Assembly: GCA_964600365.1 (NCBI GenBank)
Contig: CAZRJG010000002.1
Location: forward strand, 36,180 to 100,179
Direction: 5' to 3'
From: an uncultured Acidimicrobiia bacterium
Lineage (GTDB): Bacteria; Actinomycetota; Acidimicrobiia; Spongiisociales; JAENVV01
DNA: 64,000 nt
Position 1 is the first letter of the stretch, and each line of letters begins with the position of its first letter. Under the pieces are notes generated by a model. The model did no database searches, had not been told where the DNA came from, and worked only from the letters and a program-made list of their open reading frames with translations. Shown here in pieces: positions 13,134 through 15,349 of this stretch. The position numbers and the translations under genes are program-made.

Positions 13134-13163
13134 CGGGTTCCCGCCCCCGGCACCCGACCGACA

Positions 13164-13200
13164 CCAGGCAGGGCCGCCCCGTCGGGGCGGCCCTGCCTGG
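13164..13200. other. Very stable GC hairpin: 17-bp perfect stem CCAGGCAGGGCCGCCCC / GGGGCGGCCCTGCCTGG with a 3-nt loop
   Basis: Read directly. It abuts the att-like tRNA-fragment repeat. A related 9-bp-stem hairpin (GGGCCGCCC-CGAA-GGGCGGCCC) sits at 15235-15256 next to the intact tRNA-Pro. Confidence 0.6.
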
Positions 13201-13208
13201 TGTCTCTT

Positions 13209-13253
13209 GGTCGGGACGGTCGGATTTGAACCGACGACCTCAGCGTCCCGAAG
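13209..13253 (-). repeat. attR-like partial copy of the tRNA-Pro 3' half (anticodon loop to CCA end; 43/45 identical to 15273-15317)
   Basis: tggtcgggacggtcggatttgaaccgacgacctcagcgtcccgaa compared with tggtcgggacggtgggatttgaacccacgacctcagcgtcccgaa. The 5' half of a tRNA is absent, so this is not a second tRNA gene. Confidence 0.7.
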
Positions 13254-13346
13254 GCGCCCGCCATGGACTGAGGCGTACTCCTGCGGACCAAAACCCCAGG
13301 TCAGAGCAGTACGGTGACTGCCGCGAACTGCGGTGGACGCCTACGG

Positions 13347-13368
13347 ACGCGCGATGGACGCGCGATGG
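13347..13368. repeat. Tandem 11-mer GACGCGCGATG x2 (copy A), candidate integrase arm-type site
   Basis: An identical 22-mer recurs at 15194-15215, just inside the other end of the island. Confidence 0.4.
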
Positions 13369-13380
13369 AGCGGGGTTCGG

Positions 13381-13662
13381 TCAGGCGACCTCGAGGAACC
13401 GGCGGATCGCCTCACGGATGATCTCGCTGGTGGTGGTGTGCTCGGCTTCGGCGCGCGCTTCGATCGCAGCTCGCAGTTCGGGGTCGATGCGGACCGGCAC
13501 GACGTCGGCCGGACCCGATCCCATCGGAGGCCGACCCCGGCGCCGGGTCTTGAGGGCTTCGACGTCGTATTCGGTCTCGGCGACCTCGTTGGCGAGTGCG
13601 TCGATCTCCTCGTCGGTGAGGGTGCGGCCGCTGCGCGTGCGATGGGTCTTCGCTTCCGTCAT
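13381..13662 (-). CDS. BrnA-like antitoxin with C-terminal ribbon-helix-helix domain
   Basis: 93 aa. The C-terminal part (VVPVRIDPELRAAIEARAEAEHTTTSEIIREAIRRFL) is an RHH fold. The ATG overlaps the upstream toxin stop by 4 nt (ATGA). Confidence 0.65.
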   Translation of the reverse strand: MTEAKTHRTRSGRTLTDEEIDALANEVAETEYDVEALKTRRRGRPPMGSGPADVVPVRIDPELRAAIEARAEAEHTTTSEIIREAIRRFLEVA

Positions 13663-13922
13663 GGCATGTCCTCCCTGGTCTGCGGGAGCAAGTCGTAGAA
13701 GGTCGGTCGGAGCGGCATGGCGTGGATCACCAGATTGATGTCGTCGGCGAGTTCGAGCCAGATGATCTCCAGCAGATTGCCAGCTCGGTCGGGTCCGATG
13801 GCAAGGGCTTTGGGTGGGTCTGCGTCGGGGTCGAGGTCGATAATGGTGATGGCATGGTCGAGGGCGTGGAGGATGGCGGCATCGTCGATACCGTGCTTGC
13901 GGGCCGACCGGTGGATCTCCAC
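13659..13922 (-). CDS. BrnT-like (DUF497) toxin, toxin-first operon
   Basis: 87-aa core (VEIHRSARKHGIDDAAILHAL...AIGPDRAGNLLEIIWLEL...VIHAMPLRPT) resembles the BrnT/DUF497 layout KHG(I/V)..EA ... iG..r.G.lL.vv ... I(S/H)A(R/M). GTG start chosen just downstream of a palindromic operator. The 154-aa ORF extension upstream is judged spurious. Confidence 0.5.
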   Translation of the reverse strand: MEIHRSARKHGIDDAAILHALDHAITIIDLDPDADPPKALAIGPDRAGNLLEIIWLELADDINLVIHAMPLRPTFYDLLPQTREDMP

Positions 13923-13925
13923 ATC

Positions 13926-13945
13926 ACAATATTGTAATACGAAAG
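13926..13945. promoter_or_regulatory. Palindromic operator ACAATATTGT (10-bp perfect, imperfectly extended) overlapping a -10-like TACAAT, immediately 5' of the toxin start
   Basis: On the coding (minus) strand the sequence reads ...CGTATTACAATATTGTGATGTGG.... RHH antitoxins typically autoregulate at such palindromes. The spacing suggests a leaderless or near-leaderless transcript. Confidence 0.35.
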
Positions 13946-14085
13946 TCAGGTGAAGGGAACCGACTGTCTGACATCGCTGGGGGATACGCCTACGTGTCAG
14001 CGTGTCGCCTGCGGCCGATCCTGGAAGTGCCGTTCCCGGGTGCTTTGCGGAATGTGCGATATGGCACCGTATTTGGTGTTCTGGG

Positions 14086-14460
14086 CTACTCGGCGAGGTC
14101 GATGGTTCCGTCGCGTCGGCCACCTTCGGAGAAGGTTCGGAATCCGATCAGGGCCATGAGGAACCAGACGGCGCCGATGAGCAGTTCGAGGCCTAGCTCC
14201 CCGAACGCCCCAGACGAGATCCCGTTTGTGAGCAGGTCCCGCGTACCGAGGAGTCCGTGGTGGAGCGGAAGTAGGTTGGCGATCTGTTGCACCCATTCGG
14301 GAAAGACCTCGGTGGCGACGTTGACGCCGCCGATGGCGACGAGGGTGTAGAAGACGAAGTTGAAGAGGATGTTGCCGATGCGGAGGCGTCGGATGCTGAT
14401 CGCGGCGAGGAAGAGGCCGAGCCCGTAGGAGCCGAGAGCGACGGCGATGAGGCCGACCGG
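14086..14460 (-). pseudogene. C-terminal fragment (about 125 aa) of an ABC-2 type transporter permease, 5'-truncated
   Basis: The frame reads ...WWLLPVGLIAVALGSYGLGLFLAAISIRRLRIGNILFNFVFYTLVAIGGVNVATEVFPEWVQQIANLLPLHHGLLGTRDLL...GAVWFLMALIGF and then stops. No N-terminal part is present; the sequence upstream switches to the integrase fragment at about 14461. Confidence 0.5.
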
Positions 14461-14462
14461 CA

Positions 14463-15194
14463 GAAGCCACCAGTGGCCGGCTCAACGCCGCCGTGCTCGA
14501 CGATCGGATCGCCCGGTCACCCTGTCGGGGCATTCGGCTGCCGGCCATCCAACCGACCGACCGGCCCGTGCTCACGGCTTCCCAGTTGGCGGATCTCACT
14601 GAGGCGCTGGGACCCGACTACGGGCTGATGGTGCATCTCGGGGCGGTGCTCGGGCTGCGGTGGGGTGAATGCGCCGGACTCCGCATCGGTCGGATCGACT
14701 TCGACCGAGCGACCGTCGCCATCACCGAACAGGTCACCCGGGGCGCCGGAGGCCGCTCGGTCCTCGGGCCACCCAAGTCCCAGGCCGCCCGCAGGACCCT
14801 GGCCGCACCGCCGGTGCTCACAGATCTCATCGCCGAGCACCTCGAGCGTCGGGGGCTCACAACCAGAGACACCCATGCCTTCCTGTTCGCCGGCTTGGAC
14901 GGTGGACACCTCGACTACTCGAACTGGCTGCACCGAATCTGGTATCCCGCCCGCCAACAAGCCGGTGTCGAGTGGGCCCAATTCCACGACCTCCGCCGAG
15001 CAAACGCCACCGGACTCGTCCTCGAAGGCATCGACCTCAAGACCGCCCAAACCCGACTCGGGCACACCGACCCGAGGCTGACACTCGGCATCTACGCCCA
15101 AGCCAGCACCGAAGCCGACCGCCACGCCGCCGAACGACTCGGCGACCGATTCCTCCCGAAACGGGACCACGACAACGGAAGAGGCCTTATCTGA
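14463..15194 (+). pseudogene. Tyrosine recombinase (phage integrase) catalytic domain only, N-terminal arm/core-binding domains missing
   Basis: R...HxLRH...Y-type catalytic region (LGLRWGECAGLRIGRID...HDLRRANATGLV...RLGHTDPRLTLGIYAQ). The frame opens at about 14463 without a plausible start or N-domain. The stop lies immediately before tandem 11-mer copy B. Confidence 0.6.
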
Positions 15195-15215
15195 CGCGCG
15201 ATGGACGCGCGATGG
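15194..15215. repeat. Tandem 11-mer GACGCGCGATG x2 (copy B)
   Basis: Identical to 13347-13368. Confidence 0.4.
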
Positions 15216-15272
15216 AAACCCCTCCCAAACCAGCGGGCCGCCCCGAAGGGCGGCCCTGACCTGGGGTTTCTC

Positions 15273-15349
15273 TGGTCGGGACGGTGGGATTTGAACCCAC
15301 GACCTCAGCGTCCCGAACGCTGCGCGCTGCCAAACTGCGCCACGTCCCG
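15273..15349 (-). tRNA. tRNA-Pro (anticodon CGG)
   Basis: Manual fold: acceptor CGGGACG/CGTCCCG, D-arm GCGC-AGTTTGGCA-GCGC, anticodon stem CAGCG/CGCTG with loop TTCGGGA (U33, CGG, G37), T-arm GTGGG-TTCAAAT-CCCAC, discriminator A, encoded CCA. Confidence 0.85.

Follow-up and report, generated by a model that had tools for sequence, protein, structure and literature searches.

The DNA analysed here, a 64-kb stretch from an uncultured member of the Acidimicrobiia (the window), carries beside the 3' end of a tRNA-Pro(CGG) gene a 2-kb island, whose gene content is limited to a toxin-antitoxin pair and to fragments of ABC-2 and integrase. The features of interest are listed below; the two arms are named according to the reading argued for further on.

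13160..13204, no strand: perfect hairpin with 22-nt arms (inverted-repeat search), outside the island beside the displaced tRNA fragment, in the original chromosomal flank
13208..13255, minus strand: left att copy, the displaced 3' part of tRNA-Pro, 45/48 identical to the right copy
13291..13307, plus strand: inverted-repeat partner AAACCCCAGGTCAGAGC (inverted-repeat search), in the putative P' arm about 45 nt past the anticodon loop
13336..13345, plus strand: degenerate third P'-arm unit, gacgcctacg (10 nt), keeping the phase of the perfect pair (by sequence reading)
13346..13369, plus strand: putative P' arm (distal, attL side), two perfect tandem 11-bp units GACGCGCGATG (13346-13356 and 13357-13367) followed by GA (exact repeat)
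13381..13662, minus strand: ribbon-helix-helix (RHH, CopG-type) antitoxin-like gene, its stop 11 nt past the 24-nt P'-arm block (13 nt past the second unit)
14463..15194, plus strand: integrase remnant reduced to the catalytic domain, corresponding to residues 131-371 in full-length homologues of 374 aa
15193..15216, plus strand: putative P arm (int and tRNA side, attR side), two perfect tandem 11-bp units followed by GA (exact repeat)
15235..15256, no strand: G+C-rich hairpin GGGCCGCCC-cgaa-GGGCGGCCC, element-borne, between the P-arm units and the tRNA (repeat comparison)
15253..15269, plus strand: inner inverted-repeat arm GCCCTGACCTGGGGTTT, a conserved TGACC element beside the tRNA 3' end (inverted-repeat search)
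15273-15320, minus strand: right att identity block, the 3' 48 nt of tRNA-Pro (repeat comparison)
15273..15349, minus strand: tRNA-Pro(CGG), the integration target, anticodon loop TCCCGAA at 15311-15317 on the plus strand

The att identity block covers the tRNA gene between its anticodon loop and its 3' end, the tRNA being restored by element DNA; in the left copy identity stops just beyond the anticodon loop (13246-13252). Inside these att copies lies an exact 24-nt repeat, GACGCGCGATG twice followed by GA (full block GACGCGCGATGGACGCGCGATGGA), at 13346-13369 and 15193-15216. When the two copies were compared, no homology flanking the 24-nt blocks was found on either side. The sequence-only reading had reported the repeat as a 22-mer present at both island ends: it does exist, at 13346-13367 and 15193-15214, i.e. 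1 nt below the coordinates then given. The spacings claimed, about 95 bp inside the att-like repeat and about 55 bp inside the tRNA-proximal border, are approximately right, since the left pair starts 90 nt past the partial tRNA copy and the right pair ends 58 nt before the 3' end of tRNA-Pro(CGG) at 15273. The right copy is indeed adjacent to the integrase stop codon, except that it does not follow it: the TGA (15192-15194) shares its last two bases with the start of the pair.

An exact 24-mer pair is expected by chance in 64 kb with a frequency of about 1e-5 ((6.4e4)^2/2 / 4^24). The window holds four exact 11-mer units, every one of them at the island ends; at one mismatch or less there are five matches (7.8 expected from shuffles), four of which are these same units. 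The motif, with four units at two places in 64 kb, is thus not dispersed in the manner of REP repeats; such a dispersal, according to the sequence-only reading, would have broken its link to the element. The genome-wide count suggested at the same time showed the motif to be rare and bound to elements: a scan of 185,579 species genomes with the exact 22-mer returned 44 stretches, mostly from Acidimicrobiia, with no more than two loci per genome. About three quarters of the occurrences in the genome collection fall within one of two recurring contexts, either int stop, 22-mer, hairpin and tRNA, or left arm, 22-mer and RHH gene. No match was found among the 2.9 million viral contigs of IMG/VR, either to the 22-mer or to a free attP (two unit pairs 180-210 nt apart).

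To cover relatives, 80 metagenome loci were picked by integrase homology alone; the pair was counted over 44 non-duplicate loci. A pair was scored when a tandem of 11-bp period, with at least 9/11 identical positions, lay at between 100 and 45 nt from the tRNA 3' end, on the int side. Such a pair at fixed distance from the tRNA was present in 37 of the 44 non-duplicate loci, against 45 of 6051 background windows (0.7%). It lies at -80 from the tRNA 3' end in the window and likewise in homologous loci, and it forms the best-conserved block outside the tRNA in the P-arm alignment. Place and phase are constant; what changes from lineage to lineage is the unit core (GCGCGAT, GCGGGAT, GTGCCAT, GTGCGAT, GTTCGAT, GCGGCCT, GTGGGAT and others). 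In each of seven complete elements of 2-15 kb, that of the window included, the two arms share the element's own unit type at equal distances; these elements represent six or seven unit types, L105 and L131 both being of the GCGGG type. In all seven, att identity breaks off in the interval from the end of the loop TCCCGAA to that of the stem. The 11-bp unit bears no resemblance to the anticodon stem-loop CAGCG TCCCGAA CGCTG. One unit type is used by elements located at tRNA-Pro, Ile, Thr, Val, Ala and Arg, in line with a modular integrase whose arm-binding domain is conserved and whose core specificity can change.

The RHH gene is a conserved cargo at the P'-arm end in relatives, and a P'-arm context ending at the RHH stop was seen in 11 genome loci. 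Upstream of the perfect pair, phased GGAC/GGAT units are also present in L056, L125, L129 and L131.

The integrase of the window has lost its first ~145 residues; the putative arm-binding domain and the core-binding domain are gone. Its full-length homologues appear to possess an extra N-terminal domain of beta-beta-beta-alpha type, which is missing from the window integrase. A protein search listed 1,979 homologues, and 398 of the first 600 metagenome stretches matched by pattern encode one. The Pfam arm-domain models are not significant on these homologues: on the four that were searched no arm-binding family reached threshold, and Arm-DNA-bind_4 gave E=0.25 for P0072 alone. Among PDB entries, the homologous integrases are closest to Tn1549 Int (E 5e-9). 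No second integrase copy able to act in trans was found in the 64-kb window.

Over 45 loci, the identity of the unit core follows that of the integrase N-domain (Mantel rho 0.29, p=0.0005), with no such correlation for the remaining integrase (rho -0.12, p=0.91). Units were also forecast beforehand from the N-domain: the pair was at the forecast place in 7/7 blind cases, and its sequence was exact in four (P0072, P0101, P0053 and P0020) and one or two bases off in the three others (P0116, P0114 and P0094). Column-wise mutual information with the unit class placed six N-domain columns in the top 25, versus 3.3 expected, no more than a mild enrichment. The naming of specificity residues from per-column mutual information was given up, that measure being confounded by column entropy and phylogeny.

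We propose, with a probability of about 0.8, that the 24-nt blocks represent the P and P' arm-type sites recognized by a heterobivalent tyrosine integrase, itself part of a family of integrative elements in Acidimicrobiia that targets the anticodon loop of tRNA genes, mostly of tRNA-Pro(CGG). The units are short (11 bp), in tandem and on the same strand on both arms, and they flank the core from within the element, in agreement with the claimed split between attL and attR. Checked on sequence, the predictions of this reading came out as expected for rarity, fixed place, same unit on both arms, tracking of the N-domain and a layout with precedents. That the integrase is the binder, and that it bridges arm and core, is our inference from these sequence data.

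The main rival for the role of binder is Xis, or recombination directionality factor, i.e. the HTH_17 protein, for which the tandem units would be sites serving to bend the arms during excision. Intact relatives do have an HTH_17 gene (a small putative Xis) upstream of int and overlapping its start, and binding to tandem direct repeats is established for the Xis of lambda and that of L5. Over the 21 loci with a readable Xis, moreover, the correlation of unit identity is about as strong with Xis (rho 0.28, p=0.02) as with the N-domain (0.29), and Mantel statistics cannot separate the two because xis and the coding region of the N-domain are physically adjacent. What makes a Xis site unlikely is the placement of the pairs and the sorting of Xis types. 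Known Xis sites are confined to a single arm, where they separate arm sites from core; the pairs are found here at the outer ends of both arms and form no core-proximal cluster on one of them. GCGCGAT goes with two very different Xis types (L068 versus L045, L046, L132 and others), as does GTGCCAT (L071 versus L111 and L125), and such a layout is assigned to the integrase in the mv4 and Cluster J precedents.

That the units are sites for a host protein, for instance a bending or nucleoid factor, or that they serve the tRNA or int as regulatory or terminator signals, appears quite improbable. Host factors bind the arms of lambda attP, and the right-hand units are downstream of int, near a terminator-like hairpin of the tRNA; the left pair, however, is downstream of neither tRNA nor int. 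The unit is identical on both arms of a given element and different between elements, including elements of a single host clade. Differing classes even occur together in one genome or locus (L014, L012), and the host factor is disfavoured because of this coexistence. Finally, the chromosomal flank left of 13208 has a hairpin (13160..13204) beyond which no arm units were found.

Still less probable is that the pairs serve chiefly to recombine tandem elements, by homologous or secondary integrase-mediated exchange, thereby building and trimming composite islands, with intasome assembly as a secondary role. Tandem arrays exist (e.g. L014), and some junctions show a P-arm pair fused directly to a P'-arm flank, for example at position 4075 of L038 (int, 22-mer, RHH flank) and in L076/L077, where AATGTGCCAT is joined to CCGCGCGATGG. 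These junctions are few, though, and direct repeats of 22-24 bp about 200 bp apart are expected to recombine as a by-product; the co-variation with the N-domain and the fixed geometry would be left unexplained. A dispersed REP-like repeat, or a 24-nt match due to chance or to a duplication remnant unlinked to the element, is hardly credible: the unit is G+C-rich like the genome and, at one mismatch, no commoner than in shuffles, but its exact copies are confined to the island ends and to at most two loci per genome, the 22-mer is missing from the viral contigs, and its position relative to the tRNA is fixed across independently chosen loci.

Two other candidates were discarded. The RHH antitoxin as binder was rejected since its gene has the units at its 3' end and since, in most relatives (L125, L129, L131), units are present where such a gene is missing, and replication iterons since the units are present in elements without any rep gene.

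If the blocks are integrase arm sites, the following scheme can be drawn. In the excised form the ends would join, 15193-15317 to 13253-13369, to give an attP of about 242 bp. From the int side, this would begin with the int stop and a unit pair, followed after about 20 nt by the hairpin, the TGACC element and the tRNA 3' part, then the anticodon loop, where crossover is placed, about 45 nt, GGTCA, about 40 nt and the second unit pair. The two pairs would be about 110 bp either side of the anticodon loop, in direct orientation. The N-terminal domain of one protomer, a three-stranded sheet, would grip each 11-bp unit while the core-binding and catalytic domains of the same protomer grip the anticodon stem-loop; bridging of the arm and core contacts would give the recombination complex, and integration would divide the pairs between attL and attR. 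In the window the sites are probably relics, because the integrase has lost its first ~145 residues and therefore its N-terminal domain, through which it can no longer bind.

Among the closest layouts is that of the Lactobacillus phage mv4, whose attP (215 bp) has two pairs of adjacent 11-bp direct-repeat arm sites at its ends (bioRxiv 10.1101/2023.11.06.565760). The mv4 integrase is a heterobivalent enzyme of the Tn916 family; as here, the target is the 3' part of a tRNA, attP measures about 215-240 bp with one 11-bp pair per arm end, and a 7-bp strand-exchange region is flanked by inverted core sites. The differences are an unrelated unit sequence, a host of another phylum, integrases that are only distantly related, and a crossover near the tRNA 3' end instead of the probable anticodon loop. 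The mv4 arm sites were established by binding assays; those described here are predicted from sequence.

In Cluster J mycobacteriophages, paired 10-bp putative arm sites flank the tRNA common core downstream of int (PMC3706429). L5 and Cluster J share with the present elements actinobacterial hosts and an attP just 3' of int (PMC3706429; PMC10865867), a common core that overlaps the tRNA from anticodon loop to 3' end, paired imperfect direct repeats of about 10 bp on both sides of it, and an integrase with an N-terminal arm-binding domain, putative in the present case. However, their consensus is TGCATAC... and not GACGCGCGATG, actinobacteriophage integrases reach at best about 30% protein identity to ours, and no co-variation of site and N-domain was seen in Cluster J (PMC3706429), whereas it is present here. 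They are also phages, while the elements of the present family are islands, AICEs or a satellite-like element; the 22-mer is absent from IMG/VR. The attP of lambda (about 240 bp) likewise has arm sites distinct from the core and arms that are split between attL and attR, and its P' arm has contiguous direct repeats, as in the window (where a degenerate third unit is added). It differs by its uneven 2+3 arrangement (P1, P2, P'1-P'3) with interspersed IHF, Xis and Fis sites, by an intergenic target instead of a tRNA, and by an Int N-domain that has no detectable sequence homology to the N-domains considered here.

In AICEs, attP is located directly downstream of int, and the pSAM2 type shows tRNA integration and the order rep, xis, int, then attP, as in our elements. 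pSAM2 itself integrates in a tRNA-Pro gene. The integrase family includes AICEs, since one relative, L125, combines FtsK/SpoIIIE, RepSA, HTH_17 and Int in a single element. The window island is not one: a pSAM2-type AICE has Int, Xis, a replication initiator and an FtsK-like protein, and the island has no transfer or replication genes. Unlike AICEs, most relatives carry toxin-antitoxin pairs, defence-like genes or a capsid gene as cargo. The integrases of actinomycete plasmids and AICEs are about 30% identical or less to those of the family.

The blocks are most likely arm-type sites, which are of a known kind, on an element family of uncultured Acidimicrobiia that is large and undescribed. 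One integrase/attP design appears to be common to this family, which spans AICEs, defence-like islands, a capsid-bearing satellite-like element and toxin-antitoxin mini-islands. In the window, the unit sites would fix the true ends of the decayed island, as the sequence-only reading had suggested in using them to support its boundaries, and the integrase fragment would derive from a once complete lambda-type enzyme, the island being no longer self-mobile. Paired 11-bp units together with a tRNA fragment provide a simple signature to delimit islands of this kind in metagenome-assembled genomes. The current view of recombination by tyrosine integrases is not altered by these results.

The lineage-specific variants of the unit constitute a ready data set on arm-site specificity. 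A recognition code can be put forward tentatively, the odds being rather against it: the dozen or so 7-bp cores would correspond to a small number of changes in strands 2 and 3 of the N-domain, perhaps at position 16 (D/E/R/Q) and positions 26-28 (TYT / REvS / aYK / ERS), so that arm specificity and the orthogonality of elements stacked at one tRNA gene might become predictable and re-engineerable. As part of the same tentative proposal, the phased GGAC array and the TGACC inverted repeat might be further, undescribed protein sites in the same attP. TGACC is found in 35 of the 44 homologous loci versus 4.5% of background windows, and its partner AAACCCCAGGTCAGAGC is kept in the left arms of complete elements. 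The G+C-rich hairpin at 15235..15256 is likely a replacement terminator for the tRNA. Judged by eye and unscored, the stem of this tRNA-proximal hairpin varies across loci in an apparently compensatory manner.

The 22-mer GACGCGCGATGGACGCGCGATG, two tandem 11-bp units that the sequence-only reading had proposed as candidate integrase arm-type sites, does occur twice at the ends of the island, a decayed element at tRNA-Pro(CGG), on the forward strand at 13346-13367 and 15193-15214, i.e. 1 nt lower than first placed. The exact repeat is 24 nt long (the 22-mer plus GA, 13346-13369 and 15193-15216) with no similarity beyond either copy; by our own arithmetic, chance would give ~1e-5 such exact 24-mer pairs over a 64-kb stretch. 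The 11-mer, with at most one mismatch, was not enriched in the 64-kb window (5 matches versus 7.8 expected from shuffles), four of the five being the paired units themselves. The features of the island are:

13208-13255, displaced copy of the 3' 48 nt of tRNA-Pro (45/48 identical)
13296-13304 and 15257-15265, second conserved attP element (inverted repeat 13291-13307 / 15253-15269)
13336-13345, degenerate third unit (gacgcctacg) preceding the left pair
13381-13662, reverse strand, ribbon-helix-helix (RHH) gene
14086-14481, reverse strand, C-terminal fragment of an ABC-2 permease
15273-15349, reverse strand, tRNA-Pro(CGG)

The left pair begins 90 nt inside the tRNA fragment and the end of the right pair is 58 nt short of the tRNA 3' end, close to the ~95 and ~55 bp first estimated; the right pair does not quite follow the integrase stop, as had been thought, since the TGA (15192-15194) overlaps its first unit. 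Of the three mismatches between the tRNA copies, two compensate each other in the T stem. Left of 13208 the DNA contains a perfect hairpin but lacks units, so that the units are part of the element and not of the chromosomal flank of the tRNA. The integrase frame comprises the catalytic domain only (it aligns to residues 131-371 of 374-residue homologues), and no second integrase copy was found within the window. At 14463-14481 the permease fragment (-) abuts the integrase fragment (+, from residue ~131); this junction is a deletion or rearrangement scar which removed the N-terminal 130-145 residues of the integrase together with the DNA upstream, where xis presumably lay. The only intact cargo is a toxin-antitoxin-like pair (13381-14123), an RHH/CopG protein (C-terminal RHH) and a DUF4258-like partner (weak match), also between the island ends. 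The hairpins at 13160-13204 (perfect 22-nt arms, beside the tRNA fragment) and at 15235-15256 (placed by the element next to the live tRNA) are 73% similar, which has two readings: mimicry of the tRNA terminator region by the element, or a 'chromosomal' flank that itself remains from an older element.

The 22-mer is rare. When one genome per species was scanned (185,579 species), exact matches came from 44 stretches; nearly all belong to Acidimicrobiia metagenome-assembled genomes, and no genome has more than two loci. The 22-mer had no match in 2.9 million viral contigs. About three quarters of the occurrences fit one of two contexts seen in the window. In the first, the int stop precedes the 22-mer, which is followed by ~55 nt with a hairpin and by a tRNA (Pro-CGG in most cases, otherwise Thr or Arg); in the second, the 22-mer stands between a conserved left-arm sequence and the stop codon of this RHH gene. 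A common, dispersed motif is rejected. One match (L029) is a coding coincidence inside a kinase gene. In Acidimicrobiia, at least 11 genomes have the end of this RHH gene beside distal-arm units. In four loci (L005, L023, L034, L041; assemblies labelled Ktedonobacterales and Gemmatimonadetes, and one site beside tRNA-Arg) the 11-mer is in three or four tandem copies, so that this unit class is not confined to Acidimicrobiia or tRNA-Pro, binning errors being possible.

A test independent of the motif used the integrase fragment as query: 18 full-length homologues were aligned, and 80 metagenome loci were fetched by protein homology alone (48-89% identity). With positions anchored on the 3' terminus of the tRNA downstream of int, a tandem ~11-bp pair of uniform strand stood at about -80 to -58 in nearly all loci. 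A pair of 11-bp period (at least 9/11 identity) was present in the 55-nt zone of 37 of the 44 non-duplicate loci versus 45 of 6,051 background windows. When the int-side arms of the 12 closest loci are aligned, conservation outside the tRNA is highest at the pair, the DNA before it (coding or non-coding) and the 20-nt spacer after it being variable. Place and phase are constant; the sequence of the unit depends on the lineage (variants GACGCGCGATG, GACGCGGGATA/AACGCGGGATG, GATGTGCCATG, GATGTGCGATG, GATGTTCGATA, CGCGGCCTG, GACGTGGGATA, GCGCGCAA and GCGCACG), and the window's class also occurs in elements at tRNA-Ile, Thr, Val, Ala and Arg.

The loci spanning both ends have one lineage-specific unit common to both arms, 90-101 nt inside the tRNA fragment in the distal arm and ~80 nt before the tRNA in the proximal one.

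Complete elements, their size and the unit on both arms
Window element, 2.1 kb: GACGCGCGATG
L056, 14.7 kb: GATGTTCGATA AATGTTCGATG
L105, 8.7 kb: GCGGGCT-type
L097, 3.9 kb: GTGGGAT
L125, 12.3 kb: GGATGTGCCATG x2
L129, 10.9 kb: GGATGTGCGATG x2
L131, 9.1 kb: GCGGGATG and an odd second unit TTGCGGGATG

The att identity block of all seven elements stops past the end of the anticodon loop (TCCCGAA) but no later than the end of the anticodon stem, which places the crossover inside the loop. Relative to this loop, the centres of the window's pairs are at about -110 and +107, in a reconstructed attP of ~242 bp.

Other elements recur in these arms. TGACC(W)G precedes the tRNA 3' end by 15-19 nt in 35 of 44 homologous loci (versus 4.5% of background windows). 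All seven complete elements have an inverted copy in the distal arm, ~41-50 nt past the anticodon loop, so placed that the crossover is roughly the centre of symmetry of the two; this element may be the site of a bending factor or of Xis, or an extra integrase site. In the distal arm, GGAC/GGAT recurs every 10-11 bp upstream from the perfect units (window 13261-13369, at 13335, 13345, 13356 and 13367; L056, L125, L129; L131, TGGACtcgtcTGGACacaccTGGACgcggg), with a further pair nearer the core and nothing similar on the int side; they might be additional, weak arm sites, or sites of Xis. Arm units also mark junctions between stacked elements: in L038 (4075-4096) int, 22-mer and RHH-side flank follow each other, the core between two pairs being deleted; in L076/L077, ~130 nt after the int stop, AATGTGCCAT is fused to CCGCGCGATGG; in L014 (4615-4852) a class-A pair and a tRNA fragment precede the GACGCGGGATA AACGCGGGATG pair of a different element.

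The full-length homologues have 372-374 residues, of which Pfam covers 64-154 (core-binding) and 166-346 (catalytic) and leaves residues 1-60 (MSVHLRWTKEGARRYDVRLRDPTGKTYTRTFRTRREAEAFE…) without coverage. A model of this N-domain (31-sequence alignment, pLDDT 77) has strands at 2-7, 13-20 and 26-31 and a helix at 34-50. Identity of the 7-bp unit core correlated with that of integrase residues 1-55 (Mantel rho 0.29, p=0.0005, 45 loci) and not with that of residues 62-360 (rho -0.12, p=0.91). Column-wise mutual information showed only a mild N-domain enrichment (position 26 at the top; 13, 28 and 16 in the top 12). Cores predicted from the first locus set were recorded before new loci were fetched; the pair was at the predicted place in 7/7.

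Predicted and observed cores, by integrase protein
P0072: G[TC]GCCAT, GTGCCAT; exact
P0101: CGCGGCCTG, identical; exact
P0053: GTGCGAT, GTGCGAT; exact
P0020: GCGCGAT, GCGCGAT; exact
P0116: GTGGGAT, GCGGGAT; 1 base off
P0114: GCGGGAT-like, GCGGGCA / GCGGGCT; 2 bases off
P0094: GCGGGAC / GCGGGCT, GCGGGAT; 1-2 bases off

Fixed position, identity of both arms and co-variation with the N-domain, all comparative evidence, argue for the arm-type reading: the 24-nt blocks are probably integrase arm-type sites (probability about 0.8). In the window, these putative sites are relics of a dead element.

As the main alternative, the HTH_17 (Xis-like) protein, whose gene overlaps the int start in intact relatives, might bind the pairs instead. 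Unit identity tracks Xis as well as the N-domain (rho 0.28 versus 0.29, 21 loci with readable Xis), a comparison that cannot separate the two because their coding regions are adjacent. However, one unit goes with two very different Xis types (L068 versus L045/L046/L132; L071 versus L111/L125), the pairs sit at the outer ends of both arms, and published layouts ascribe such pairs to the integrase, which makes Xis an improbable binder. A host factor is unlikely, since a single locus can contain distinct unit classes (L014, L012).

Published attP layouts share the design of the feature in the window. In Cluster J mycobacteriophages attP lies downstream of int, and putative 10-bp arm sites stand in pairs to either side of a 44-bp common core that begins in the anticodon loop of a tRNA (PMC3706429); phages of Clusters K and L are described in like terms (PMC10865867). 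In AICEs, attP follows int directly and overlaps the 3' end of a tRNA. By tblastn, actinobacteriophage integrases (Gordonia, Arthrobacter, Mycobacterium) are ~30% identical, in alignments which include the N-domain, since they start at residue 7-14. The integrases of the window's family are at most ~30% identical to any annotated phage or plasmid integrase. What is new is this family of uncultured Acidimicrobiia elements with visible site/domain co-variation.

Many integrase copies at tRNA-Pro in genome assemblies are pseudogenes, as in the window; in Acidimicrobiia assemblies (L002-L043) they are often frameshifted or truncated (L006, L009, L014, L031, L036) beside still perfect arm units, and decay in place seems common. 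At the Xis position upstream of int (L045-L132), two very different HTH_17-like small proteins (KLLLKPEEAAELLSIGRSKVYELI… and …ISEIAQLLGVTPQRAGQIARDHADFPAPV…) are swapped between otherwise related elements. Very different cargo is carried within this one integrase family: an AICE (L125: FtsK/SpoIIIE, RepSA, Xis, Int), defence-like islands (L129: RelA_SpoT, N6_N4 methylase, ResIII helicase; L126: methylases, HATPase), a 9-kb satellite-like element (L131: Phage_capsid gene and Fic), mini-islands (the window, with its toxin-antitoxin pair; L028: Xis, Int, SEC-C-motif ORF) and, in L132, a toxin-antitoxin pair (HepT-like/NTP_transf_2) between int and tRNA.
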